A stretch of 64,000 nt of DNA. Origin: an uncultured Alphaproteobacteria bacterium. Lineage in GTDB: Bacteria > Pseudomonadota > Alphaproteobacteria > HIMB59 > GCA-002718135. Below the pieces are notes generated by a model. That model ran no database searches, was not told the origin of the DNA, and saw nothing but the letters and a program-made list of their open reading frames with translations. Position numbers and translations under genes: made by a program. The DNA is taken from the NCBI GenBank assembly GCA_902541215.1, contig CACBPV010000001.1, positions 6,606 to 70,605 on the forward strand. The letters are read 5' to 3'. Positions 1-13,067 of this stretch are shown here, piece after piece (positions within the stretch are counted from its first letter, which is position 1; every line of letters starts with the position of its first letter).

Positions 1-1325
1 ATAGCTATTCTTTGTCTTTGACCTCCTGAAAACTCATGAGGAAATCTAAGCATGGAACTAGGTTCTAAACCAACTTCACTCATTATGTTTTCAATTTTAT
101 TTAGCCGTTCGTTTTTATCTTTCATATTAAGTGCTACAATTAATCCCTCTTCTATAATTTGTTTAACAGACAATCGTGGATTTAAAGATGCATATGGATC
201 TTGAAAAACTATCTGCATTTGATTTCTAAATGGCTTAAATTGCTTTCTAGATAAACTGTCAATTCGATCATCAAAAAACTTAATTTCACCTTCTACATCT
301 GTGTTAGATTCTCTATCAACTAACCTTAATAATGTTTGACCTAAAGTAGTTTTACCAGATCCACTTTCACCAACAATTCCAAGGGTCTCACCTTCTTTAA
401 GATAGAGACTGATATTATTAACAGCATTAATTGATAAAACTTTATTTCTACCTGATACTTTTACTTTAGTATTAAATGTTACATTAAGATTTTCTCCTGA
501 AAGTATACTTCTTCCATTTTTATCATAATGTAAATCTCTTTCTTCTGGCTCTGATGACAATAAATGTTTTGTATAATCATCTTTTGGATTTTCAAAAATT
601 TCTTTTGTAATACCTGTTTCTTTTATTTTTCCATTATACATTACACAAACTCTATCACTTATTTGTCTGACAATAGTCAGATCATGAGTAATAAATAAAA
701 TGGACATTTGATATTTTTGTTGAAGACTTTGAAGTAATTTAAGTATCTCTGTTTGAACTGTAACATCAAGAGCAGTAGTTGGCTCATCTGCAATAAGTAA
801 ATCTGGATTATTAGCTATAGCAATAGCAATCATAATTCTTTGTCTTTGTCCTCCAGACAATTGATGTGGGTATTGTGATAATCTAGACTCTGGTTCTGGA
901 ATTTGAACTTGTTTTAGTAATTCAAGACATTTCTCTTTGAGTTCTTTATCTGAAAATTTTCCATGAATTTTTAAAACCTCACTAATTTGGTTTTCAATTG
1001 TATATATTGGATTTAAAGAACTCATTGGTTCTTGAAAAATCATTGAAATATTTTTTCCTCTAATATTTTGATACTCTTTTTCAGAATAAGAATTTATATT
1101 TGTTCCATTAAATTTAATTGAAGTTTGATCAGATATTACGGCATTCTCAGCAAGTAATCGAATGATTCCTCTAGCTGTAACTGATTTTCCAGAGCCACTT
1201 TCTCCAACTAATGCCAAAGTTTCACCTTTTTTAATATCAAATGATATTCCGTTTACTGCATTAACTTCACCGCTATCAGTATTAAATTTTACGTGTAGAT
1301 TTTCTATTTCAACAAGGTTAGGCAT
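1..1325 (-). CDS. ABC transporter ATP-binding protein with two fused ABC domains (peptide/opine family, YejF / fused DppD-DppF-like). The 3' end runs off the window.
   Basis: Hand translation of the minus strand from the ATG at 1325 gives MPNLVEIENLHVKF.... Walker A VGESGSGK(S/T) occurs twice (about 1189-1208 and 355-374). The LSGGQRQR/FSGGQRQR signature also occurs twice (about 845-870 and at the window start). The start overlaps the upstream permease stop (TAATG). It is absent from the ORF track because there is no stop inside the window. Confidence 0.85.
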   Translation of the reverse strand, partial: MPNLVEIENLHVKFNTDSGEVNAVNGISFDIKKGETLALVGESGSGKSVTARGIIRLLAENAVISDQTSIKFNGTNINSYSEKEYQNIRGKNISMIFQEPMSSLNPIYTIENQISEVLKIHGKFSDKELKEKCLELLKQVQIPEPESRLSQYPHQLSGGQRQRIMIAIAIANNPDLLIADEPTTALDVTVQTEILKLLQSLQQKYQMSILFITHDLTIVRQISDRVCVMYNGKIKETGITKEIFENPKDDYTKHLLSSEPEERDLHYDKNGRSILSGENLNVTFNTKVKVSGRNKVLSINAVNNISLYLKEGETLGIVGESGSGKTTLGQTLLRLVDRESNTDVEGEIKFFDDRIDSLSRKQFKPFRNQMQIVFQDPYASLNPRLSVKQIIEEGLIVALNMKDKNERLNKIENIMSEVGLEPSSMLRFPHEFSGGQRQRIA

Positions 1326-2428
1326 TATTTTTTAGTAGTTGTTGCATAGGGATCAATTGCATCTCTCAAAGCATCGCCCAAAGCATTAAATCCTAAAACT
1401 GAAATTAAGATTGCAAATACAGGACTGAGAACCCATGGGTAACTTCCAATAGTTCGCAGATCTTGCGCAGAATTTAATTGTAGTCCCCAACTAACAAAAG
1501 GTGATTGAATCCCAAGTCCCAAAAAACTAAAAAAGCTTTCCGTTAAAATTACTGATGGTATTAATAGTGATACACTAACTATAACATGGCTTGTAACATT
1601 CGGGAGTAAATGTCGATAAATGATTCTTAAATCATTTGAACCTAATGCTTCAGCTGCTTTAATATAATCCAATCTTCTTAGTGATAGAGTTTTTCCGCGA
1701 ACTTCTCTGGATAGCTGTGCCCATCTCAATGATGATAAAATGAATGCCATAAAAATAAATATTAGAAATGGATCCATCTGTCTTGGAAGTATCGCGACAA
1801 GTGATAAATATAATGGTAAATCAGGAAAAGCTAAAGCTAGTTCTGTCACCCGTTGTGTAGCAATATCAAATTTTCCTGCAAAATAACCTGAGCTTATTCC
1901 AACTAAAATACCAATAAAAGTTGTTATACTCACTACTATAAGAGCAAATAATAATGTTACTCTACTTCCCTTAAAAATTCTTGATAACATATCTCTTCCA
2001 TATGCATCAGATCCAATAAAAAATACTTTAGATCCATCTTTGGTAGTAAATAAATGTATATCCAAATTTAATCCAAGAAATTTATATTCCCATCCTTTAG
2101 TAAAAAAATAAAGATAATTTTTTTGAGTATAATCAATCTCCATTATTGGTTCAAAAGTGTCAGGATCAAATCCTTCAATAAAGCCATAAGCAAAAGGCCT
2201 TAACGAAAAATTATTATCTTGATCAAAGAAATGTATTCCCTGAGGAGGATAGAAAACTCTATCACTATCTCTAGCTGCAGGATCATATGGTGATAAGAAA
2301 TCAGCAAAAACTGCAGTAAATATTAAAAAACTTACAAAGACCAAACCAAGTATTCCAACTCTATTTTTTAAAAATCTTTTTTTGACAAGAGAAAAATATG
2401 AATTTTGTAAATTAGAAGTTTTTTCCAT
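1325..2428 (-). CDS. ABC transporter permease (OppC/DppC-like) with an extended periplasmic loop after TM1
   Basis: Track ORF 1325..2518. I place the start at the internal Met (MEKTSNLQNSYFSLVKKRFLKNR...) at 2428, just after the upstream permease stop at 2434. The C-terminal BPD-type permease core reads ...IKAAEALGSNDLRIIYRHLLPN.... Confidence 0.8.
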   Translation of the reverse strand: MEKTSNLQNSYFSLVKKRFLKNRVGILGLVFVSFLIFTAVFADFLSPYDPAARDSDRVFYPPQGIHFFDQDNNFSLRPFAYGFIEGFDPDTFEPIMEIDYTQKNYLYFFTKGWEYKFLGLNLDIHLFTTKDGSKVFFIGSDAYGRDMLSRIFKGSRVTLLFALIVVSITTFIGILVGISSGYFAGKFDIATQRVTELALAFPDLPLYLSLVAILPRQMDPFLIFIFMAFILSSLRWAQLSREVRGKTLSLRRLDYIKAAEALGSNDLRIIYRHLLPNVTSHVIVSVSLLIPSVILTESFFSFLGLGIQSPFVSWGLQLNSAQDLRTIGSYPWVLSPVFAILISVLGFNALGDALRDAIDPYATTTKK

Positions 2429-2433
2429 AAAAT

Positions 2434-3432
2434 TTAATTCTGCCTTACGCGTGGATCTAAGATAGCTAGTAAAATATCTGCGATAATATTTCCAATTATT
2501 AATATTACTGTTAAACAAAATAAAATTGCTGCTGTAGTATAAGTGTCTTGTCTTTGAATAGATTCAACTAAAAGTGGTCCTGCAGTTGGAATAGATAAAA
2601 CAATCGCAGCTTCTAGTTCTCCCATTAACATATAAGGTAATGCAATACCTTGAAACATAACAAGAGGATGTAAAGCATTTGGAACTGCGTGACGATACAA
2701 TGTTTGATTTTCAGACAAACCTTTTGCTCTCGCAGTTTCAATATATTGCATTCGCATTACATCTAATAAATTTCCACGCATCACTCGCATATTGTATGCA
2801 AGCCCTCCAATAATTGCGATTACAAATATTGGCCAAATATGCAGTATACCGTTCCATAACTTTGCAAAAGACATAGGTTGAACTGCGTAATATGGTGAAT
2901 ACATAGAACCAGTGTTGTCAGAATTTAAAACAATTGCCAACCAATACATAATTAACAATGCCAAGAAAAAACGTGGAATTGTCATACCTAAAAAGGCAAA
3001 GACTGTAGCCACATTATCACCTAACTTGTTTTGATTTTTTGCAGCATAAATACCTATAAAAACACCAATAGTTGTAGCAAAAAAATGACAGATCAAGGCG
3101 ATAACTAAAGTTCGAGGTAATCTATCACCTAACATTTCGCTAACAGGTTTGTTGTAGTGCATGGAAAAACCAAAATCAAAATTTAGAACTATATTTTTAA
3201 TCCAATTAAAATATCTTATTATAACTGGCTCATTAAGACCGTATTTTTCTCTTAATGTTTTTGTAAGTTCTAAAGCCTGTTCTTGTGTAATATTTGCTAA
3301 AGCCTTTGTTTGACTAACATACCAAGTTGCATAATCACCTGGAGGTAACTCGATAATAAAAAAAATTATAATGCTAATTATAAAAAGAAGTGGAAGTGAA
3401 TAAAGAATTCTTCTAATTATAAATGAAAGCAT
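2434..3432 (-). CDS. ABC transporter permease (OppB/DppB-like)
   Basis: 332 aa. The N-terminus MLSFIIRRILYSLPLLFII..ELPPGDY is typical of DppB-type permeases. It contains ETARAKGLSENQTLYRHAVPNAL (EAA-like loop). Confidence 0.85.
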   Translation of the reverse strand: MLSFIIRRILYSLPLLFIISIIIFFIIELPPGDYATWYVSQTKALANITQEQALELTKTLREKYGLNEPVIIRYFNWIKNIVLNFDFGFSMHYNKPVSEMLGDRLPRTLVIALICHFFATTIGVFIGIYAAKNQNKLGDNVATVFAFLGMTIPRFFLALLIMYWLAIVLNSDNTGSMYSPYYAVQPMSFAKLWNGILHIWPIFVIAIIGGLAYNMRVMRGNLLDVMRMQYIETARAKGLSENQTLYRHAVPNALHPLVMFQGIALPYMLMGELEAAIVLSIPTAGPLLVESIQRQDTYTTAAILFCLTVILIIGNIIADILLAILDPRVRQN

Positions 3433-3442
3433 TTTTTAAAAC

Positions 3443-3467
3443 GTAAGGGGCTTTTTAAGCCCCTTAC
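3443..3467 (-). terminator. Intercistronic stem-loop between the SBP gene and the first permease gene (partial terminator / mRNA-stabilising hairpin candidate)
   Basis: GTAAGGGGC-(7 nt loop)-GCCCCTTAC is a perfect 9-bp stem with five G:C pairs in an otherwise very AT-rich spacer. On the minus strand it is followed by GTTTTAAAAAATG, the permease start. Confidence 0.45.
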
Positions 3468-3478
3468 AAAAAGGTTTA

Positions 3479-5530
3479 TTAATCAATACCAGGAACTCTT
3501 CCTGGGAATAACTCATCAAATTGATCATATTGATAAACCCAGAATTGTTCACGGATAACTGTATCTTCAGCCCATTGATAAGCAAGAACAGGCATTCCAT
3601 CAGCTAAGTTTTGAATTCTTTTATTAATCAAAAGTGCTGTAGGATATTGTACTAAACCTGGAGCATAAACATTTTCAGTGAATAACTTCTGATATTGAGA
3701 CATTAGCTGTTTAGCTTCATCTCCCTCCACACCATCTCTCCATCTTTCAAGAATTTTAACAATTTCTTTTTCAAACGGTTGTAGTTGTTGAGGATGTTCA
3801 TCTGTTCCTAAATGAGGTGTAAATGAAGTGTTTGTAATAGGGCCAATATACTCCCAAAAACCTGAATTTGGAAAAGCATACCCTTGCTCAGCTCTTCTTA
3901 TTATCCAATCAAACTCACCTGATTGTCTTGTTGGCTCTGTGTCCTCCATTGGTTTAACATTTAATTTAATTCCAACTTCAGCCATCATTGTTGCAAGACC
4001 ATCACCAATTAGTTTCTCGTTTTCACTATCCTTATTTGACGTCAAATTAATAACAAGGTCTCCACCTCCGTTAGGAAGGTTTCGAACACCATTGCCATCA
4101 GTATCAACAAGACCTAAACCATCAAGCAGAGAATTTGCTCCACCAGCGTTATAAGGGAAAAATGAAGTTGCATCAGGATCAAAGAAGGCACTGTCTCTAG
4201 CAATACCACCAGCGTATACAGTTGCAAAAGGTCCTTTAGACATAGCTTTTGCAAATGCTTTACCATCTATGGCGTGCTGAATAGCTTTTCTGAAATCTAA
4301 ATTTCTATTTAGATCTCTAATTGCAGCCATCTGATCATCTAATACACCTACACCTATAGCTTGATTCATATAGAGGTGATAACCCATAGTTCTTCCACTA
4401 AAGTTAAGTGTTGCCTGTGCATCTTCGCTTTTTGACTCTTTAACAGCCTCTAAAAATAAAGGTACATTCTCCATATTAGAGAAGTCAGCGTTACCAGCTA
4501 AGGTATCAACTGTTCTTTGACCCCATGTTTTTAATTGAAAGACCATCTCGTTCATATATGGAAGCTGTTGCCCTTTGCTATCTACTTTCCAGTAATATGG
4601 ATTTCGACGAAGTATTACAACCTCATCTTGTTTATATTCTACTGCAGTCCATGCACCCATACTTACCCATGGTAATCGTCCAGCTGGAAATGCTTGAACA
4701 TATTCATCGTAAGATGTACCACCATATTTAGGGTGATGCTCTTTAAGTAAATGCGAAGGTCCAGGACATCCATTTATGTATGCCATGGAATGCAAATTAA
4801 GTTTTGGTTCATTTTGTGGAAACGTCCACTTAATTTGAGTTGGGCTTAGAATTTCTAATGAAGTACCTTCACCCATAGTAGAAGCATTCATTCTTGTAGG
4901 AACATTCTCATCAAGTACATTATCTTCCCACCAAAAACGAACATCTTCAGAGTCAAAAGGGTCACCATCAGACCATTTTGCACCATCAATAAGATTCATA
5001 GTTAAAGAGTTTCCGTCCCATTCCCAATCAGTTGCTAGATTTGGTAAAGGATAAGAATCTTCAGCTTTTAATCTTACCATTGGACCATTTCTTGTTAGAC
5101 ATTCTTGAACTGTGTAATTAATTCCACCCCATCCTTGATGCTGTGAAGCTGTCCAGTTCCATCCTTCTGGTCTTCCACCAATAGTATGTCTAAAAGTCCC
5201 ACCATATCGACCAATACCATCTGGCATTGCGTCACCATTAAAAACTAAAGGTCTTTTTGGTAATCGTTCCCAAATCGGTGGTAGTTTACCTTCTTGAACT
5301 AGAGCACTAATGTATTCTGGCTCATATAGAAATTCAAAGTCTCCAATATCTTGATAGCTCATCAATTCATCCCTTCCGACAAATTGAACTTCTTGCATAT
5401 TTTCAATTGCAGGTGCTGATGGAAGTGCTATAGCACCTTCTGGTCTAGCAGATACATTTGTACTAGTTAATGCAAAAGTAGCAGAAGCTACACTAGCAAG
5501 TAATGTGGATCTAAATTTATTTTTTTTCAT
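3479..5530 (-). CDS. ABC transporter substrate-binding protein, family 5 (peptide/nickel/opine/alpha-galactoside type), secreted
   Basis: 683 aa. The N-terminal signal peptide is MKKNKFRSTLLASVASATFALTSTNVSA. Family-5 SBP-like segments include WSDGDPFDSEDVRFWWED and RRNPYYWKVD. A strong GGAGG Shine-Dalgarno sits 5 nt upstream of the ATG (revcomp of 5533-5541). Confidence 0.8.
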   Translation of the reverse strand: MKKNKFRSTLLASVASATFALTSTNVSARPEGAIALPSAPAIENMQEVQFVGRDELMSYQDIGDFEFLYEPEYISALVQEGKLPPIWERLPKRPLVFNGDAMPDGIGRYGGTFRHTIGGRPEGWNWTASQHQGWGGINYTVQECLTRNGPMVRLKAEDSYPLPNLATDWEWDGNSLTMNLIDGAKWSDGDPFDSEDVRFWWEDNVLDENVPTRMNASTMGEGTSLEILSPTQIKWTFPQNEPKLNLHSMAYINGCPGPSHLLKEHHPKYGGTSYDEYVQAFPAGRLPWVSMGAWTAVEYKQDEVVILRRNPYYWKVDSKGQQLPYMNEMVFQLKTWGQRTVDTLAGNADFSNMENVPLFLEAVKESKSEDAQATLNFSGRTMGYHLYMNQAIGVGVLDDQMAAIRDLNRNLDFRKAIQHAIDGKAFAKAMSKGPFATVYAGGIARDSAFFDPDATSFFPYNAGGANSLLDGLGLVDTDGNGVRNLPNGGGDLVINLTSNKDSENEKLIGDGLATMMAEVGIKLNVKPMEDTEPTRQSGEFDWIIRRAEQGYAFPNSGFWEYIGPITNTSFTPHLGTDEHPQQLQPFEKEIVKILERWRDGVEGDEAKQLMSQYQKLFTENVYAPGLVQYPTALLINKRIQNLADGMPVLAYQWAEDTVIREQFWVYQYDQFDELFPGRVPGID

Positions 5531-5611
5531 CTGTCCTCCACTTAAAATTACAGAAAACCTATAATAAAATTGGATTATTGAGAAGAACTATTTGAGATTA
5601 GATTAAGTAAT

Positions 5612-7075
5612 TTATAAATTAAATGCTTCCTTTTCAACTAAAATTGACCTTTTTTGTTGATTACGCTTTGTTTTTTTAGTCAGCCCTTTAATTGATTTAT
5701 TATATTTATAATTTTTTATTTTTTTTAGATTCTTTTTAATACTATTAATTTTTGATTGATATTGTGGTAGCCATTGTGCTTGTGCTACAAGCATCTCATC
5801 TACCATTTGCCAAACTTCCTCCGATGAACATACTGAGCTTACTAGTGGATCTTGGAGTACAGCAAGTTTTAATAATTCAATATCTCCTTTTATAGCTGCT
5901 TTTACTGCCATTCTTTGAACATCTATTGAAGTACTGCATAGAGAAGCACATTGCAGTGGTAAAGTTATTCCTTCAATCATTTGTATTCCTTTTGAATCTG
6001 CGTATCCTGTGCTTTCAATTACGCAATCATCATCTAAATTAGAAATTGTTTTTTTATTAATAACATTAAAATGTCCCCTATATTTTTTTCCAGTTTCAAT
6101 TGCTTCAATTATATAACTTCCGTGTTCAGTTGATCTTTTGTAATCTTTAAGTTGAATTCCAGAATTTTTTAAATATTTTGGATAATCCTCTACAAACCAG
6201 TTTCTTTTTTCATTACATACTCTTAAGTAACCACCTGTTTCGCCATGTATCCAATTTGAGAGGCTGCTCCATTTCCTCACATCTTTTTGTGTACGTCTAT
6301 ACCATGGTAAATATTCACTTAAATGACCGTTGCTCTCTGTAGAAAAGTATCCAAATTTATCTAAAACATCTATTCTAACTTTTTCATCTCTAGAAAATTT
6401 TTTATGTTTCTTTAACGATTTAGAAAGCTGTTCTTTTGTAATTTTTTTACCCTTATACTTTAAATCCAAATACCAAGTCATGTGATTTATACCACTGCAA
6501 GAATATTTCATTTTTCCAAATGGAATGTTTAATGAATCTTCGATTAATTTTGCACCACCTTGAACTCCATGGCAAAGACCGATTGTGTTGACTTTACCAA
6601 TTTCATTTGCTGCCCAAGTATTCATGGCCATAGGATTTGCATAATTTAAAAAGAGTGCATTTTTTTTGGCATATTTTTTTATATCTTCACAAAAATCTAA
6701 AATAACTGGAATGTTTCGCTGCCCGTACATTATGCCACCAGCACAAATTGTATCTCCTACACATTGATCGATACCATATTTCAATGGAATTGATATATCT
6801 GTTTCAAATGCTTCCAGCCCTCCTACTCTTACACAACTAATGATATATTTTGCATTCCTTATTGATTCTTTCCTAATAGGTTCAATAGTGAGTTTAGTTG
6901 GAAGGTTATTAGCTTTAATGTCTTTTTGAATTAACTCAGCTACCATCAACAAATTGCTTCTTGATATATCATGAAGAGATATTTCAATATTTTGAAGTTT
7001 TTTTACTTTTAAGATATCTCTTACTAATGTTTGGGTAAAACCAACACTACCTGCACCAAGAAATGATATTTTCAT
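5612..7075 (-). CDS. Glycoside hydrolase family 4 enzyme (NAD+/Mn2+-dependent alpha-glucosidase / alpha-galacturonidase-like) with a Lys-rich C-terminal tail
   Basis: 487 aa. The N-terminal Rossmann motif is MKISFLGAGSVGFT. GH4 metal/catalytic motifs are present: GLCHGVQG and SGINHMTWY. It is a paralogue of the 7875..9239 product. Confidence 0.8.
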   Translation of the reverse strand: MKISFLGAGSVGFTQTLVRDILKVKKLQNIEISLHDISRSNLLMVAELIQKDIKANNLPTKLTIEPIRKESIRNAKYIISCVRVGGLEAFETDISIPLKYGIDQCVGDTICAGGIMYGQRNIPVILDFCEDIKKYAKKNALFLNYANPMAMNTWAANEIGKVNTIGLCHGVQGGAKLIEDSLNIPFGKMKYSCSGINHMTWYLDLKYKGKKITKEQLSKSLKKHKKFSRDEKVRIDVLDKFGYFSTESNGHLSEYLPWYRRTQKDVRKWSSLSNWIHGETGGYLRVCNEKRNWFVEDYPKYLKNSGIQLKDYKRSTEHGSYIIEAIETGKKYRGHFNVINKKTISNLDDDCVIESTGYADSKGIQMIEGITLPLQCASLCSTSIDVQRMAVKAAIKGDIELLKLAVLQDPLVSSVCSSEEVWQMVDEMLVAQAQWLPQYQSKINSIKKNLKKIKNYKYNKSIKGLTKKTKRNQQKRSILVEKEAFNL

Positions 7076-7103
7076 ATGTTTATTTCTAAACTTCTAAATT
7101 TAT

Positions 7104-7132
7104 TTGACAATATTATTATTTATTTCTAACAT
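7104..7132 (+). promoter_or_regulatory. Sigma70-like promoter candidate for the plus-strand PhyH/GH4/PanB-like operon
   Basis: TTGACA (7104-7109), a 17-nt spacer, then TAACAT (7127-7132). The ATG at 7142 lies only about 10 nt downstream, implying a very short leader or none. This is pattern matching only. Confidence 0.3.
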
Positions 7133-7141
7133 AAAATTTAT

Positions 7142-7882
7142 ATGTCAGATTTCACAGATTTTAAAAATAATGGATACATTCTAAAAAGAAATCTTTTTTC
7201 ACAAGATGAAATATTTAAATTAACCAATTTTATTGAAAGAAATTCTGAGAAAGAAAATCAAGCAAGAGAAACTTTTAGTTCTACAGGTAAACTAAATATG
7301 ACATTATGGAATCATCCATCGGATGATTTATTTGGAAAGTTTTCTACTAATGAAAGAATAGTAAAACCAATGGAAGAATTCCTTGAGGATGAAGTTTACC
7401 ACTATCATTCAAAAATTATTTGGAAAAAACCAGGTGATGGTGGTTTTGATTGGCATCAAGACTATGGTTATTGGTATCATAATGCATGTCTTTATCCAGA
7501 TATGGGATCTTGTTTTATAATGCTAGATAAGGCCACAAAGGAAAATGGTTGTCTAAAAGTTTTAAAGGGATCTCAAAAAGTTGGAAGAATTGGCCATGGT
7601 ACTTCTGATACTCCTGAACAGACAGCTGACTTAGATAGAATTCGTGAGTTAGAAAAAAGACATGAATGTATTTATATCGAAGCTAACCCTGGTGACGCAC
7701 TTTTTTTTCATGCAAATCTTTTACATTCGTCAGAAGCAAATAATTCAAATTCTTCTAGAAGAACTCTAATAGTATGCTTTAATACTAAAACAAATAATCC
7801 GTATAAAGAAATTGGACATCCAAGGTATACTCCTTTAAAAGTCTCACATCATAATTCAATTATGGAATATCAAAATGATTAA
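7142..7882 (+). CDS. Phytanoyl-CoA dioxygenase (PhyH) family Fe(II)/2-oxoglutarate-dependent dioxygenase
   Basis: 246 aa. The HxD motif sits in FDWHQDYGYW and the distal His in FFHANLLHSSEAN. RRTLIVCF supplies a 2OG-binding Arg context. Confidence 0.7.
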   Translation: MSDFTDFKNNGYILKRNLFSQDEIFKLTNFIERNSEKENQARETFSSTGKLNMTLWNHPSDDLFGKFSTNERIVKPMEEFLEDEVYHYHSKIIWKKPGDGGFDWHQDYGYWYHNACLYPDMGSCFIMLDKATKENGCLKVLKGSQKVGRIGHGTSDTPEQTADLDRIRELEKRHECIYIEANPGDALFFHANLLHSSEANNSNSSRRTLIVCFNTKTNNPYKEIGHPRYTPLKVSHHNSIMEYQND

Positions 7883-9239
7883 ACTTACTATAATTGGAGC
7901 AGGTAGTGCTGTTTTTACAAGAAGAATAGTAACCGATCTTTTAGCTATTGAACAATTTAAAAATATGGAGATTGCATTACAAGACATTGATCCTGTAAGA
8001 TTAAAAGCATCACATGATGTAATAGATGTAATTTCAAAAAAATTAAATATTTCACCTAAAGTTACTTCTCATACAGACAGACGAGAGTCTTTAATTGGTG
8101 CAGACTTTGTTCAAACAACAATTCAAGTAGGGGGATATGAACCATCCACAGTTATAGATTTTAAAATTCCTAATGAGTTTGGATTAAGACAAACTATAGC
8201 AGATACTCTCGGTATAGGTGGAATAATGAGAGGATTACGAACTATTCCTGTTTTACTAGATATTGCAAAAGATATTATGGATATTTGTCCAAATGCTACT
8301 TGGCTGCAATACGTAAATCCAATGTGTTCAAATATGATTGCAATAAATACTGCTTTTCCTGAAATCAAAGCTATGGGTCTATGTCACTCTGTTCAAGGAA
8401 CCGCAGAAATGTTGGCAAAAGATTTAGATGAAGATATTAATAATATTGAATATCTTTGTGGCGGTATAAACCATATGGCCTTCTATAAAAAATTTGAAAA
8501 GAAAATTAATGAAAATGAAAACGAAGATTTATATCCTAGATTAAAAAAACTAGCAGATAAAATTGTCAATGATGAGAAAATATCTTCAAGAAGTAAAAAA
8601 ACGGATCATGAATCTAATAAGGTGCTTCATGAAAAAGTACGTTATGAAATTCTTAGACGATTTGGTTATTTTGTAACAGAGTCTAGTGAGCACTTTGCTG
8701 AATATGTTCCATGGTTCATAAAACAAAATAGAGATGACGTCATAAGAAAGTACAAGATACCAATAGAAGAGTATATCGATAGATGTAAAAGCAACATTAA
8801 ACTTTGGAAAGATTTGGAAAAAGATATGACTCCAATTTATGATATGCCTCTTAAAAGAAGTAATGAGTACGCATCATTTATAATGGATGGAATTGCAAAT
8901 AATAAAGAAGTTACTATCAATGCTAATGTTATGAATGATAATTTAATTGATAATTTACCAGAAAATTGCTGTGTAGAAGTCCCTGTAATAATTAATTCAA
9001 AGGGTTATAAACCTGAAAAGTTTGGTAAATTACCAGAGCAATTAGCTGCTTTAATGCGCACTAATATAAATGTACAAATACTAACTGCTGAAGCTGCTCT
9101 AACAAAAAAAAGAGAGCACATATACCATGCTGCAATGCTTGACCCTTTAACAGGTGCAAATCTTACAATTGATGAAATTTATAGCATGACCGATAAGATG
9201 ATTGAAGCACATGGCAATTATTTACCTCAATTTAATTAA
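7875..9239 (+). CDS. melA: Glycoside hydrolase family 4 alpha-galactosidase (MelA-like)
   Basis: 454 aa. Similarity along the full length to my recollection of E. coli MelA: IIGAGSAVFT, QVGGYEP, LRQTIADTLGIGGIMRGLRTIP, GLCHSVQGTAE, GGINHMAFY, GYFVTESSEHFAEYVPWFIK, LIDNLPENCCVEVP and LAALMRTNINVQ. It overlaps the PhyH gene by 8 nt. The GH4 family call is firm. Alpha-galactoside specificity is inferred. Confidence 0.75.
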   Translation: MIKLTIIGAGSAVFTRRIVTDLLAIEQFKNMEIALQDIDPVRLKASHDVIDVISKKLNISPKVTSHTDRRESLIGADFVQTTIQVGGYEPSTVIDFKIPNEFGLRQTIADTLGIGGIMRGLRTIPVLLDIAKDIMDICPNATWLQYVNPMCSNMIAINTAFPEIKAMGLCHSVQGTAEMLAKDLDEDINNIEYLCGGINHMAFYKKFEKKINENENEDLYPRLKKLADKIVNDEKISSRSKKTDHESNKVLHEKVRYEILRRFGYFVTESSEHFAEYVPWFIKQNRDDVIRKYKIPIEEYIDRCKSNIKLWKDLEKDMTPIYDMPLKRSNEYASFIMDGIANNKEVTINANVMNDNLIDNLPENCCVEVPVIINSKGYKPEKFGKLPEQLAALMRTNINVQILTAEAALTKKREHIYHAAMLDPLTGANLTIDEIYSMTDKMIEAHGNYLPQFN

Positions 9240-10066
9240 TGACTAAATTAACAGTTAAAGATTTATTTGAGAAAAAAGGAAAAGATAAATTAACTGAGTT
9301 ATATGTAACTAACGCACTAGAAGCATACGCTGCTGAAAAAGCGGGTATAGATATCCAAATTGTATCATTTAAAAAAGAAACACTAAGAACGGGTGTGCCA
9401 ACAAATAGATGGTTCAGAGATGCTCATATAAAAGATATTAGAGAGGCTGCTCCAAATACTTTTATGATATTTGGTCTTGGTCAACTTTCGTCAACTGAGA
9501 AGGCGGTAGAAGCAGCGCTAATTGCAAGAGATAATGGAGCTGATGCTGTTTATTGTGGAAATAGTCCAAAATATATTGAAGCTCTTCGCAAAGAAGGCTT
9601 ACCCTCTGTAAGTCATATTGGATTAATTCCTTATAAAAGTACTTGGACTGGAGGTTTTAATGCCGTAGGGAAGGACGCTGACTCAGCCTTTAAAGTGTAT
9701 CAAGATGCTATTGCGTATGACAATGCCGGTGCTATTGGTCTAGAAGTAGAATGTGTACCTGATCGAGTAGCAGAATTAATTACAAAAAAAGTAAATCTTT
9801 TAACACTCTCGATGGGTAGTGGTCCAAATTGCGATGTTGAGTTTTTATTTATCCAAGATGTAATTGGAACTAATACTGATCGAATACCTCGTCATGCAAA
9901 AGTATTTAAAGATACAAATAAGTCTTATGAAAAACTTTTAGATGATACTGTTGAAGGATTAAAAAACTTCATAAATGATGTAAAAACTAAAAAATTTCCA
10001 ACATCTTCAAATATTGTTCAAATTAAAGATGAGGAATTTGAAAAATTTTTAAATAAAGTTAGTTAA
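9239..10066 (+). CDS. PanB-fold (ketopantoate hydroxymethyltransferase family / ICL-PEPM superfamily) protein, probably not a canonical PanB
   Basis: 275 aa. PanB-like segments SHIGLIPY, LEVECVPDRVAELIT and LSMGSGPNCDVEFLFIQDVIG are present. The expected GDSLGM and KIEGG motifs are not recognisable. The start overlaps the melA-like stop (TAATG). Confidence 0.55.
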   Translation: MTKLTVKDLFEKKGKDKLTELYVTNALEAYAAEKAGIDIQIVSFKKETLRTGVPTNRWFRDAHIKDIREAAPNTFMIFGLGQLSSTEKAVEAALIARDNGADAVYCGNSPKYIEALRKEGLPSVSHIGLIPYKSTWTGGFNAVGKDADSAFKVYQDAIAYDNAGAIGLEVECVPDRVAELITKKVNLLTLSMGSGPNCDVEFLFIQDVIGTNTDRIPRHAKVFKDTNKSYEKLLDDTVEGLKNFINDVKTKKFPTSSNIVQIKDEEFEKFLNKVS

Positions 10067-10890
10067 ATTTTTATAGTTAGTAAATCTTCTCCAATTATTG
10101 GATCCTTTCCAAAATCTCTTTTGACTGTTTTTTTAAGTTTTGAAATATTAAATCTTGTTGGAACAAAATGAGTTAATACAAGTTTTTTACAATTTGATAA
10201 TTTTGCAACCTTACCAACTAGATTACTCGTCGTATGGTATTCCTTTACGTTATGTAAAGTTTTTTTAGTTCTAAGTTTTGAAGTCTTATTCATTTCATAT
10301 TCAATAAATACTTCATGCAAAAGAACGTCTGCGTTTTGAGCATTAACCATTAAGCTCTCACATGGTCTTGTGTCTCCACTAATTGTTAATTTTTTTTTAT
10401 TATTAAAAAAAGAAAAGCCATATGCAAAAGGAACAGGTTTATGGTCTACTTCAAAATATTTAATTTTTATATCATTAATTTTTATATTACCTTCTTTATT
10501 GAACTCATAAACTTTGTATTTGAGGCCTTTTATAGATTTTCTCATTTCATAATTAATTCTCAGTTGACGCTCATCTCTCCAAGCTAAAAATATTTTATCT
10601 ATAAATTTTTTTGTACCTTTAGGCCCATATATTTTCCAAATTGTATCTCTATCAGAATGCCAAGAAGATATAATGAGTTGGTATAAATCTACGACATGAT
10701 CAGTATGAAGATGAGTAAGTAATAAAGCATCAATATCAGCAGAAGAATTTCCACTTTGATTTAATCTTTGTGTAACTCCGGAACCACAATCAACTAAAAC
10801 TTTAGTATTTTTTGTTGATATTAGATTAGATGAACCACACCTTTTATAATCTATTGAAGGACATCCTGTTCCAAGAAGCGTTAGCTTCAT
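10063..10890 (-). CDS. MBL-fold metallo-hydrolase (RNase Z / beta-lactamase-like)
   Basis: 275 aa. It carries the HLHTDHV (HxHxDH) motif and an N-terminal LTLLGTG. The start overlaps the rpoD stop (TAATG). Confidence 0.75.
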   Translation of the reverse strand: MKLTLLGTGCPSIDYKRCGSSNLISTKNTKVLVDCGSGVTQRLNQSGNSSADIDALLLTHLHTDHVVDLYQLIISSWHSDRDTIWKIYGPKGTKKFIDKIFLAWRDERQLRINYEMRKSIKGLKYKVYEFNKEGNIKINDIKIKYFEVDHKPVPFAYGFSFFNNKKKLTISGDTRPCESLMVNAQNADVLLHEVFIEYEMNKTSKLRTKKTLHNVKEYHTTSNLVGKVAKLSNCKKLVLTHFVPTRFNISKLKKTVKRDFGKDPIIGEDLLTIKI

Positions 10891-13067
10891 TATTCGTCAA
10901 GAAATGTTTTTAACTTTCTAGCTCTTGTTGGGTGTTTTAACTTTCTTAAAGCTTTAGCTTCGATTTGCCTTATTCTCTCCCTTGTAACACTAAATTGTTG
11001 ACCAACTTCTTCTAAAGTATGATCACTATTCATACCTATGCCAAATCTCATTCTTAAAACTCTTTCTTCTCTTGGTGTTAAGGAGGAAAGTATTCTTGTT
11101 GTTGTGTCACGTAATGAGCTTTTTACAGCTGCTTCTATAGGTATAAGTGCATTTTTATCTTCAATGAAATCACCAAGAGAACTATCTTCTTCATCTCCTA
11201 CTGGAGTTTCTAAACTAATTGGTTCTTTAGCAATTTTTAAAACTTTTTTAACTTTATCTAACGGCATATGTAGTCTATCTGCTAATTCGTTGGGAGTTGG
11301 CTCTCTTCCTATTTCTGACATTATTTGTCTAGTTGTTCTTACAATTTTATTTATAGTTTCTATCATATGTACCGGTATTCTTATTGTTCTTGCTTGATCT
11401 GCTATTGATCTTGTTATGGCTTGTCTAATCCACCATGTAGCATAAGTAGAGAATTTATAACCTCTTCTATACTCAAATTTATCAACTGCTTTCATTAGAC
11501 CAATATTTCCTTCTTGAATTAGATCTAAAAATTGTAGGCCTCGGTTTGTATATTTTTTTGCTATCGATATAACCAATCTAAGATTGGATTCAATCATTTC
11601 TTTTTTTGCTCTATTTGCAGATCTTTCACCTTGTTGAACAGTTCCAACAATTCTTCTAAATTCTGATAATGGTAATTCTGAAGCAGCCTGAATTTCTTTA
11701 ATCTCTTCAATATTTTTATTAATTTCAATGTGATTTCTATTAATAAATTTCTCCCAATTTTTGTCTTTTGTAGATAGTAGAGATTGTATCCAATTTTTTT
11801 CAAAATTAAAATTCAAATATTGTGATATAAAATCTTCTCTTTTAACTCCAGCACTAGTTGCCATACGAAGCATCTTTCCTTCACGAAGTAAAAGTTTTTT
11901 GTTTAACTCATATAATGCCTCCATAAGCGCTTCAATTGTAGTAGAATTAAAATGTACAGCCTTCATTGCTCCAATCATTTCTTTTTGGATCTTGAGGTAT
12001 TTTTTTTCTAATGAGGTAAAAGTTTTTTCATTTTTTTTATCGGCACTTGCTAATTCCTGGCTATGTTTTTGAAGTTTTTTGAATAATTTGTTTATATCAT
12101 TAAAGTCATTTAAAACTTTAGGCTTTAATTTTTCTTCCATAGCTGCCAATGAAACATTTAAACCCTCTTCATCATCATCATCATCCTGTTGCTGTTCACT
12201 ATCATTATTATCTTCATCATTATTTTCATTAGTTTTTTCTTTATTTTTTTTTAATTTTTTTTCATCATTACCACTTTCAATGAGTTGAAGTGTATCATCG
12301 ATTTTAGAATCTGAAATGTCAGACATATCATATGTTGCCTCCAAATCAACGATGTCTCTTAAAAGCATTGTCCCATCTTTTATTGCATCTTTCCAATTAA
12401 TTATAGATCTTATAGTCATTGGACTTTCACAAATAGCGCCAATCATTTTTTCTCTTCCAGCCTCTATTCTTTTTGCAATAGCTATTTCTCCTTCTCTACT
12501 TAATAGCTCTACCGCACCCATGTCACGCAGGTATAATCTTACAGGATCATCAGTTTTTCCAGTTTGTTTTTTTTCTTGATCCTCATTGCCATCTTCAGTT
12601 TTTGTGGTTTGTTCTTTAGTTAAAGAAATTAATTCTTTAGCCTCTTCTTCTGTATAGACCTTAATATTATTTGAAGTTATCAAATCTTGAAATTTTTTAA
12701 TATTTTCATCTAACCTAAACCTTTTAGGAATTGCTTTTTCAATTATTTTTTGAGTATATATTCCATCTAATTTATGCTTATTTATTAGTTTAGTAAAAAT
12801 TTCTTTTATTTTATTATCAAAACCTGAAATTGCTTTTGGAATTTTTTTTGGTTTATCTTTTTGTAATGATTTAATTAAAGGTTTCTTGGATACTTTTTTT
12901 ACAACATTTTTTTTTGTTTTTTTAATTTTTGCTTTAGAAATTTTAGAAGATTTAGAAACAGATTTTTTCTTAATTAATTTTTTTTTAGTAGGAGTTTTCT
13001 TTTTAGATGAGGTAAGTTTATTATTTACAGTTTTTTTCTTTACAACTTTTTTCTTTTTTTTAACCAT
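10890..13067 (-). CDS. rpoD: RNA polymerase primary sigma factor RpoD with a poly-lysine N-terminal extension
   Basis: 725 aa. Region 2-4 motifs are [52 protein letters not shown] and [27 protein letters not shown]. It lies downstream of dnaG. Confidence 0.95.

Follow-up and report, generated by a model that had tools for sequence, protein, structure and literature searches.

Members of SAR11 rank first in abundance among the heterotrophs of the surface ocean and are thought to use few carbohydrates. A block of genes at one end of a 64,000-nucleotide stretch of DNA from an uncultured alphaproteobacterium (GenBank assembly GCA_902541215.1, contig CACBPV010000001.1, positions 6,606 to 70,605 of the forward strand; the whole stretch is called the window here) raises the question of what a glycoside importer with two glycosidases is doing in such a genome, and what is added to it by two further genes, encoding a PhyH-family dioxygenase and a PanB-fold protein (PanBL). 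The best explanation, to which we would give even chances when it is taken as a whole, is an Agp/Mel system of the rhizobial type that carries PhyH and PanBL as an add-on pair for methyl removal. Judged by homology and gene order, six of the eight genes very probably constitute an Agp/Mel-type alpha-galactoside uptake-and-cleavage system, familiar as such but found here in a host, SAR11, that is new and unexpected. What is new here is the pairing of PanBL with an oxygenase, which recurs across bacterial phyla and whose two genes have a place in no known pathway. The features of the block (positions 1-10066) are as follows.

3-1325, minus strand: fused double ATP-binding cassette (ABC) ATPase, AgpD-like (NCBIfam YejF/GsiA-type fused ATPase matches)
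1325-2518, minus strand: OppC-type permease (permease C), AgpC-like (Pfam OppC_N and BPD_transp_1)
2434-3432, minus strand: OppB-type permease (permease B), AgpB-like (Pfam BPD_transp_1_N and BPD_transp_1)
3479-5530, minus strand: periplasmic family-5 substrate-binding protein (SBP) of the AgpA/MelB type, 683 aa (Pfam SBP_bac_5, 169 bits)
5612-7075, minus strand: GH4_1, NAD+/Mn2+-type alpha-galactosidase, 487 aa (Pfam Glyco_hydro_4 and 4C)
7076-7141: divergent intergenic spacer of 66 nt, read from the sequence
7142-7882, plus strand: PhyH-family Fe(II)/2-oxoglutarate dioxygenase (PhyH246), 246 aa (Pfam PhyH, 115 bits)
7875-9239, plus strand: GH4_2, NAD+/Mn2+-type alpha-galactosidase, 454 aa (Pfam Glyco_hydro_4 and 4C)
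9239-10066, plus strand: PanBL, 275 aa (Pfam Pantoate_transf, 134 bits)

Every listed Pfam match lies well over its curated cut-off, and the list of open reading frames and Pfam both agree with the placement of the reading frames in an earlier, sequence-only reading of the window; the spacer, the 8-nt overlap of PhyH and GH4_2 (7875-7882), the 1-nt overlap of GH4_2 and PanBL (9239) and a GGAGG site 6 nt 5' of the SBP ATG are likewise where that reading had put them. The block is not a product of chance, since many SAR11 assemblies, from single cells and from metagenomes, carry it at the same place in the chromosome. Close homologues come from Pelagibacteraceae and from the GORG single-cell genomes, and this, with a G+C content of about 30%, assigns the window to SAR11.

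Probable import and cleavage of an alpha-galactoside

The presence of a family-5 SBP beside GH4 genes had been taken to indicate the uptake of alpha-galactosides and not of peptides, and this is borne out by the comparison of the SBP with binders of both types. It matches PDB entry 6EPY, a 'periplasmic alpha-galactoside-binding protein', over its full length (query residues 37-681 against chain residues 15-668; E 3.7e-179, 601 bits), while no peptide binder exceeds 95 bits. The alternative, in which the transporter imports di- or oligopeptides or opines and the GH4 genes are its neighbours by coincidence, is close to refuted: the permeases and the ATPase do score best against Opp/Nik/Gsi/YejF-type NCBIfam models, as does the whole ABC family, but these scores fall far under the curated cut-offs, and both the SBP match and a six-gene synteny with the agp/mel locus speak against it.

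This synteny is seen on plasmids, on which homologues of the SBP occur in 248 annotated records, mostly of Rhizobium and Sinorhizobium. The locus on plasmid pT173d of Ensifer canadensis reads AraC, then GH4 (490 aa), SBP (694 aa), permease, permease, fused ATPase (550 aa) and GH4 (457 aa), and a Paracoccaceae plasmid of Qingshengfaniella carries an equivalent gene set with both GH4 genes 3' of the ATPase. Pairing of the window proteins with their positional counterparts in Ensifer by BLASTP gave the following.

GH4_1 with the 490-aa upstream GH4: 55% identity
GH4_2 with the 457-aa downstream GH4: 48% identity
SBP with the agp-locus SBP: 44% identity
Permease C with its counterpart: 51% identity
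Permease B with its counterpart: 48% identity
ATPase with the agp-locus ATPase: 51% identity

By the same method, GH4_1 also pairs, at 55% identity, with the 499-aa GH4 that closes the Qingshengfaniella locus and GH4_2, at 48%, with the 455-aa GH4 directly 3' of the ATPase there, and matches across the paralogues reach just 30-33% identity. GH4_1 and GH4_2 are paralogues, each with its own rhizobial orthologue. With the rhizobial Agp/Mel systems (agpT-melA-agpABCD of Sinorhizobium meliloti; the mel operon of Agrobacterium fabrum, with MelB, the protein of 6EPY) the block shares six gene types in one-to-one best matches at 44-55% identity, and its gene order departs only in GH4_2, which has moved to the divergent operon between PhyH and PanBL. 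An AraC-type activator such as AgpT was found neither in the window nor in the flanks of the sister loci. Moreover, the hosts of Agp/Mel are plant-associated, whereas that of the SAR11 block is a streamlined marine genome, for which reason the natural ligand is probably other than the rhizobial one.

Both glycosidases surpass the cut-off of the NCBIfam alpha-galactosidase model PRK15076 (486 bits), GH4_1 with 541.7 and GH4_2 with 586.3 bits. The divalent-metal ligands of the family are, we take it, C174/H203 in AglA and C171/H202 in GlvA. In an alignment of GH4_2 to AglA of T. maritima and GlvA of B. subtilis, its NAD motif IIGAGSAVF agrees letter for letter with that of AglA, and its GLCH and GINHM align to GFCH and GVNHG of AglA and to NICD and GLNHF of GlvA, with the Cys and the His both kept; for GH4_1, FLGAGSVGF and the same GLCH and GINHM are visible by motif reading, without an alignment. 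The sequence-only reading had named three findings that would count against it, namely a peptide-type SBP, the loss of the GH4 Cys/His ligands and a block already characterised, and none of them turned up outright. Its uptake-and-cleavage island is very probably of the alpha-galactoside type, but there is nothing new in six of the eight genes, because two GH4 genes with this transporter are a standard, already described arrangement. Floridoside and glucosylglycerol, which that reading had named as candidate substrates, are guesses.

As for the extent of the block, the eight genes are as that reading had listed them, but the window edge cuts the block short. The ATPase frame runs past the left edge, so that the C-terminal part of about 100 aa lies outside the window (full-length orthologues of 540 aa are present in the sister loci L001-L006), and the sister loci all have a ninth gene behind that of the ATPase, the two sharing 1 nt. 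The minus-strand operon is for this reason one of six genes, since the ninth directly trails the ATPase there. Its product is a 508-aa flavoprotein of the Trp_halogenase family (L001:1-462; L002:132-1658, minus strand), in which GxGxxG, the Lys in ATLKFGI and the WxWxIP motif (GWMWQIP) are present as in true flavin-dependent halogenases. The position of this gene 3' of the ATPase sets the SAR11 sister loci apart from Agp/Mel; in the variants L018-L025 it is placed between the SBP and GH4_1 genes.

A few further points concern the reading of the sequence itself. The longest frame of permease C, from TTG 2518, would overlap permease B by 85 nt, and ATG 2428, giving 367 aa, is more likely to be the true start because relatives are called at that length. 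The N-terminus of the SBP (MKKNKFRSTLLASVASATFALTSTNVSA) looks like a Sec-type signal, judged from its residues. The spacer holds, as spotted by eye, a sigma-70-like TTGACA-17 nt-TAACAT directed toward the plus-strand genes, and an Rfam scan of positions 1-11000, spacer included, found no riboswitch or other RNA. The block had been said to hold no regulator gene, and Pfam on its frames shows none.

The PanB-like protein and its oxygenase partners

What, then, is the function of PanBL? Pfam and public annotation alike make it a 3-methyl-2-oxobutanoate hydroxymethyltransferase, and it would be simplest to regard it as the cell's own ketopantoate hydroxymethyltransferase for pantothenate synthesis. 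Several lines of evidence make this very improbable. The protein stays under the cut-offs of the PanB equivalog models, with 107.2 bits against 207.55 for TIGR00222 and 116.3 bits against 272 for PRK00311. Its residues were compared through pairwise HMMER alignments to five solved PanBs and a joint alignment of 11 members of the PanBL subfamily with four canonical PanBs. All four canonical proteins keep GDS, the Asp of ADLPF and VKxEGG, which are replaced in 11/11 subfamily members; in the window they read VSFKKE, Gly (FGLG) and VYCGNS, respectively. Presumably, Asp45 and Asp84 of E. coli PanB are Mg2+ ligands and Ser46, Lys112 and Glu114 form the keto-acid site, and all four catalytic or metal positions of PanBL aligned to these residues (Asp45/Ser46, Asp84, Lys112 and Glu114) are replaced. 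Further, the gene is present in just 10/48 informative SAR11 contigs at the site, it occurs in two to three copies beside oxygenases in some SAR11 genomes, and neither panC nor panE was found in the block or nearby, its partners being oxygenases instead. On these residues it is unlikely that PanBL makes ketopantoate, and the public label of ketopantoate hydroxymethyltransferase, used everywhere, is probably wrong.

What PanBL has in common with PanB (EC 2.1.2.11) is the fold, the conserved GxGxxxD segment, and the invariant His of GH(I/V)G and Glu of xExVP, which align to E. coli His136 and Glu181. With the AlphaFold2 model of PanBL (pLDDT 89.2) as query, the top 28 PDB matches of Foldseek are all PanB (TM 0.70-0.77, 20-25% identity), followed by members of the isocitrate-lyase/PEP-mutase superfamily. 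By an exhaustive HMMER search, PanBL belongs to a distinct family of small size, with 65 clusters at E<1e-30, that splits from canonical PanB at roughly 100 bits and has conserved motifs of its own, TWTGG(F/Y)KAVGK, SMGSGxxCD and PRHAK. Long proteins of the PanB family were also considered as 'Rosetta stone' fusions and gave no functional clue, being either canonical PanB-PanE fusions (P0340 and P0369, with the canonical PanB motifs and about 100 bits against the window PanBL) or a PanBL-PanBL tandem. The metagenomic P0241 (542 aa), with two tandem PanB-like domains in one polypeptide, mirrors the tandem gene copies of certain SAR11 paralogue loci.

It is also conceivable that PanBL, as a member of the isocitrate-lyase/PEP-mutase superfamily, does not just capture formaldehyde but works as a C-C lyase or isomerase on an oxidised sugar or cyclitol intermediate, for example in keto-sugar processing or in the retro-aldol loss of a hydroxymethyl made from a C-methyl, which would be the PanB reaction in reverse. 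The chemistry of PanB is itself an aldol-type hydroxymethyl transfer, the residues matching His136 and Glu181 are invariant, most SAR11 loci show translational coupling between PanBL and GH4_2, and neighbours in variant loci include a GFO_IDH_MocA oxidoreductase, xylose-isomerase-like TIM barrels and an aldehyde dehydrogenase. We nevertheless consider such a lyase improbable, given that both aligned Mg ligands, and with them the usual enolate-stabilising device of the superfamily, are gone, and that the partner recurring across phyla is an oxygenase and not a dehydrogenase or a GH4 enzyme.

This partnership emerged from a genome scan with a seven-sequence PanBL alignment as query, which gave 80 loci, 52 of them not SAR11 orthologues. 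An iron oxygenase lies within 3 kb of PanBL in 31 of these 52, the families represented being FA_desaturase (MocD-like) in 17, PhyH in 12 and FA_hydroxylase in 6; oxygenase density falls from 11.3 per 100 kb close to PanBL to 1.3 farther off in the same loci, a difference of about 9-fold. In two Trueperaceae genomes the gene directly 5' of PanBL encodes PhyH, in three proteobacterial metagenome-assembled genomes it encodes FA_hydroxylase, and at loci without a MocD-like gene PhyH is the commonest neighbouring Pfam family. The pairing is widespread, being present in SAR11, MarineAlpha5, SAR324, Woeseiaceae and Trueperaceae. The surroundings of PanBL in MarineAlpha5 genomes comprise GH4, GH1 and a MocD-like gene, along with an aldehyde dehydrogenase and two sugar ABC systems. 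No counterpart to the pairing of a PanB-like protein with an oxygenase, nor any PanB-like protein tied to a demethylase, was found in the searchable literature, which also yielded nothing on an alpha-galactoside operon or GH4 in SAR11.

On rhizobial plasmids, a LacI gene adjoins a conserved operon of an FA_desaturase-family gene, a 'MocE family 2Fe-2S ferredoxin', an FAD reductase and, as its last gene, PanBL, with a TIM-barrel gene beside it. PanBL occurs on 279 plasmid records, almost all rhizobial and annotated throughout as 3-methyl-2-oxobutanoate hydroxymethyltransferase; inspection of two of these confirmed the mocDEF-like operon in both. This operon sits between cobalamin and NAD biosynthesis genes. 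Paralogues of PanBL in SAR11 have similar company: locus L066 combines a MocD-like gene, a reductase and a Rieske ferredoxin with two PanBL copies. Such paralogue loci hold two or three PanBL copies interleaved with MocD-like FA_desaturase, Rieske ferredoxin, ferredoxin reductase and FA_hydroxylase genes, and they adjoin a Peripla_BP_4 SBP (sugar/inositol-type) or TctA/TctC transporters. The positions of these loci are given below.

L087, Rhizobium etli pRetIE4771c, 5135-9795: rhizobial mocDEF-like operon
L090, Sinorhizobium sp. B11 p1, 5140-9789: rhizobial mocDEF-like operon
L066, 3900-11833; L032, 14463-20764; L059: SAR11 PanBL paralogue loci

The oxygenase of the window itself, PhyH246, has as its closest solved relatives 7dt0, a 'phytanoyl-CoA dioxygenase', the leucine hydroxylase 5nch and ectoine hydroxylases. 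Its iron triad and 2-oxoglutarate Arg are recognisable from WHQD and LHSS...RR, which align to WHQD and PHSS...DR of 7dt0, and in alignment A5 H195 is invariant and R207 nearly so. A second PhyH paralogue of 277-278 aa is encoded in sister variants (L002:9152-9988; L016:3358-4191), with 4xc9/4xcb, an 'oxidase/hydroxylase', as its best PDB matches (E 1e-12); these we take to be sugar-acting orthosomycin oxygenases such as HygX. MAFFT sets IHSGN-HEGTQR of the 278-aa paralogue against the WHQD iron motif, which may reflect either an HxG site of the halogenase kind or an error of the alignment.

A modular site beside rpoD

Further insight comes from the variation of the block within SAR11 populations. 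The site was surveyed in marine metagenomes (L091-L167), with the gene for an RNase Z-like protein as anchor, and combined with the genome loci. Between RNaseZ-rpoD and an MFS gene, at least seven cassette configurations are found.

Configuration 1: CUT1 sugar importer alone, its SBP best matching the galactose binder AcbH
Configuration 2: CUT1 importer with AcbH-like SBP, and GH4_2
Configuration 3: CUT1 importer with AcbH-like SBP, GH4_2, PanBL and a 277-aa PhyH
Configuration 4: the window type
Configuration 5: the window type with an added 278-aa PhyH and/or a MocD-like gene
Configuration 6: PhyH-CUT1 importer-PanBL-PhyH
Configuration 7: minimal MFS-PhyH

PanBL is missing from 38/48 informative contigs at the site, the commonest form among the sampled metagenome contigs being GH4_2 without PanBL, and an orthologue at 83% identity or above is present in just 28 GTDB species genomes. 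It is on these two counts, the 10 of 48 contigs with PanBL and the 28 genomes, that the block can be called accessory, as had been supposed. Whenever a SAR11 variant offers enough flank, a PhyH-family gene is seen close to PanBL; within the CUT1 cassette, the 277-aa PhyH and PanBL are both present (L016, L095) or both missing (L101). PanBL behaves as a dependent, auxiliary partner of an oxygenase, since it is always near PhyH while PhyH occurs without it. In the sister variants L002-L004 and L030, a MocD-like gene is inserted between PhyH and GH4_2.

At the boundary of the site in the window, the RNase Z-like gene, of the metallo-beta-lactamase type (10063-10890, minus strand), is convergent with the PanBL gene, and their 3' ends share 4 nt (10063-10066), which therefore leaves no space for a terminator between them. 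The adjoining rpoD (10890-13067, minus strand) encodes a protein whose first 100 aa or so form a Lys-rich extension.

Such modularity invites a different explanation, namely that the block is a mosaic of unrelated cassettes. The importer and the GH4 enzymes would then use plain alpha-galactosides of the melibiose, raffinose or galactosylglycerol type, PhyH246 would derive from an older MFS-PhyH backbone and hydroxylate an unrelated small zwitterion, such as an amino acid or an ectoine-like compound, and PanBL would serve PhyH246 and not the sugar pathway. It is consistent with this that PhyH243/246 lies directly beside RNaseZ, without GH4, SBP or PanBL, in L104, L110, L115 and L155, with an MFS gene upstream of PhyH in L104; that L136 reads RNaseZ, PanBL, PhyH, without GH4_2; and that loci of the window type place an MFS gene just past the Trp_halogenase gene, which fits a minus-strand cassette inserted between MFS and PhyH. 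The leucine and ectoine hydroxylases nearest to PhyH246 among solved structures also suit such a substrate. However, the 8-nt and 1-nt overlaps join PhyH, GH4_2 and PanBL in the window, PanBL and PhyH of SAR11 recur with three carbohydrate-type importers (the family-5 Agp-like one, the CUT1 importer with AcbH-like SBP and another CUT1 importer), and PanBL of MarineAlpha5 is grouped with GH4, GH1 and sugar ABC genes. Overall, a mosaic of this kind is unlikely, though it has to be taken seriously.

A proposed oxidative demethylation and the fate of the methyl group

How might the two parts of the block work together? In the explanation preferred here, the periplasmic AgpA/MelB-like SBP would capture an alpha-galactoside, as homology and synteny indicate, the two OppBC-type permeases and the fused double ATPase would import it, and the two cytoplasmic NAD+/Mn2+-dependent GH4 alpha-galactosidases would cleave it. 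PhyH246 would hydroxylate a methyl, most likely an O-methyl, on the imported sugar or its aglycone, a role that MocD-like enzymes may take in the sister variants. The hemiacetal formed in this way would release a one-carbon (C1) unit, PanBL would hand this hydroxymethyl or formaldehyde unit to tetrahydrofolate (THF), and the C1 unit would enter the THF-linked C1 oxidation of SAR11. The best guess for the substrate is a methylated galactoside or a galactosyl-(methyl)cyclitol. This specific route of oxidative demethylation and C1 capture is put forward tentatively, its chances being somewhat short of even. The broader idea, that the PanBL subfamily as a whole is an unrecognised THF-dependent C1 acceptor, a hydroxymethyl/formaldehyde transferase without the keto-acid site of PanB, and partners at least three unrelated oxygenase families (PhyH, MocD-type FA_desaturase and FA_hydroxylase) acting on methylated sugars or cyclitols, is more doubtful.

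The case for C1 capture arises because PanBL pairs with three unrelated oxygenase families that are alike only in their type of chemistry, because MocD has a precedent in O-demethylation and carbohydrate-type importers lie alongside, and because SAR11 runs a THF-linked oxidation of methyl groups and formaldehyde (PMC3160333) and a parallel exists in the use of 6-O-methyl-galactose by Bacteroidetes. According to the passage of PMC13434037 that cites Bahar 1998, MocDEF is the oxygenase that demethylates 3-O-methyl-scyllo-inosamine. PanBL adjoins MocD-like FA_desaturase genes in rhizobial plasmids, SAR11 paralogue loci and many other genomes, with a MocE-type ferredoxin and a reductase alongside in L066 and in the R. 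etli and Sinorhizobium plasmids. The window differs in holding neither MocD, MocE nor MocF, its oxygenase being a soluble Fe/2OG PhyH. In marine Bacteroidetes, a cytochrome P450 oxidatively demethylates 6-O-methyl-D-galactose, with formaldehyde as by-product (PMC6292453, PMC9400963). The likeness is conceptual, in that an oxygenase strips an O-methyl from an algal sugar, which for the SAR11 genes is a proposal. Moreover, the enzymes there are a P450 with ferredoxin and reductase, in contrast to PhyH or MocD-like enzymes in SAR11, and the formaldehyde is detoxified by separate pathways without a PanB-like protein.

Several observations weigh against this demethylation route. PhyH and GH4_2 are each also found without PanBL in other SAR11 contigs, which shows that the three plus-strand genes can be separated as modules; their co-transcription in the window may reflect the packing of cassettes and not one pathway. 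The sequence-only reading had suggested an undescribed route in which the dioxygenase and the PanB-fold protein would act on a modified sugar or an aglycone; the distinct PanBL subfamily without the aligned metal site and its recurrent link to oxygenases, MocD-like O-demethylase components included, strengthen this suggestion, but the separability of the genes does not fit it. Among solved structures, those closest to PhyH246 are hydroxylases of amino acids and of ectoine, not demethylases. No oxygenase adjoins PanBL in 21/52 of the distant loci, and these oxygenase-free loci are mostly from Chloroflexi/Chloroflexota, together with Verrucomicrobiota, Planctomycetota and others. In pooled Pfam counts, THF and C1 enzymes are not enriched among the neighbours of PanBL. 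Since the condensation of formaldehyde with THF is spontaneous, a dedicated enzyme is not obviously needed, and to our knowledge no PanB-like gene is part of the classical moc loci or of the published moc model. Finally, PanBL would have to keep the folate and methylene-THF handling of PanB, as assumed from its ancestry, though the keto-acid/Mg site is lost.

Irrespective of the fate of the methyl group, the complete Agp/Mel-type importer and its two GH4 enzymes, which are abundant across marine metagenomes, suggest that part of SAR11 has a defined glycoside as substrate. If PanBL does capture C1 units from oxidative demethylation, this would constitute a new enzyme function, would explain how methylated sugars and cyclitols feed THF-linked C1 oxidation, and would tie the uptake of algal glycosides by SAR11 to the known 'methylovory' of the clade.

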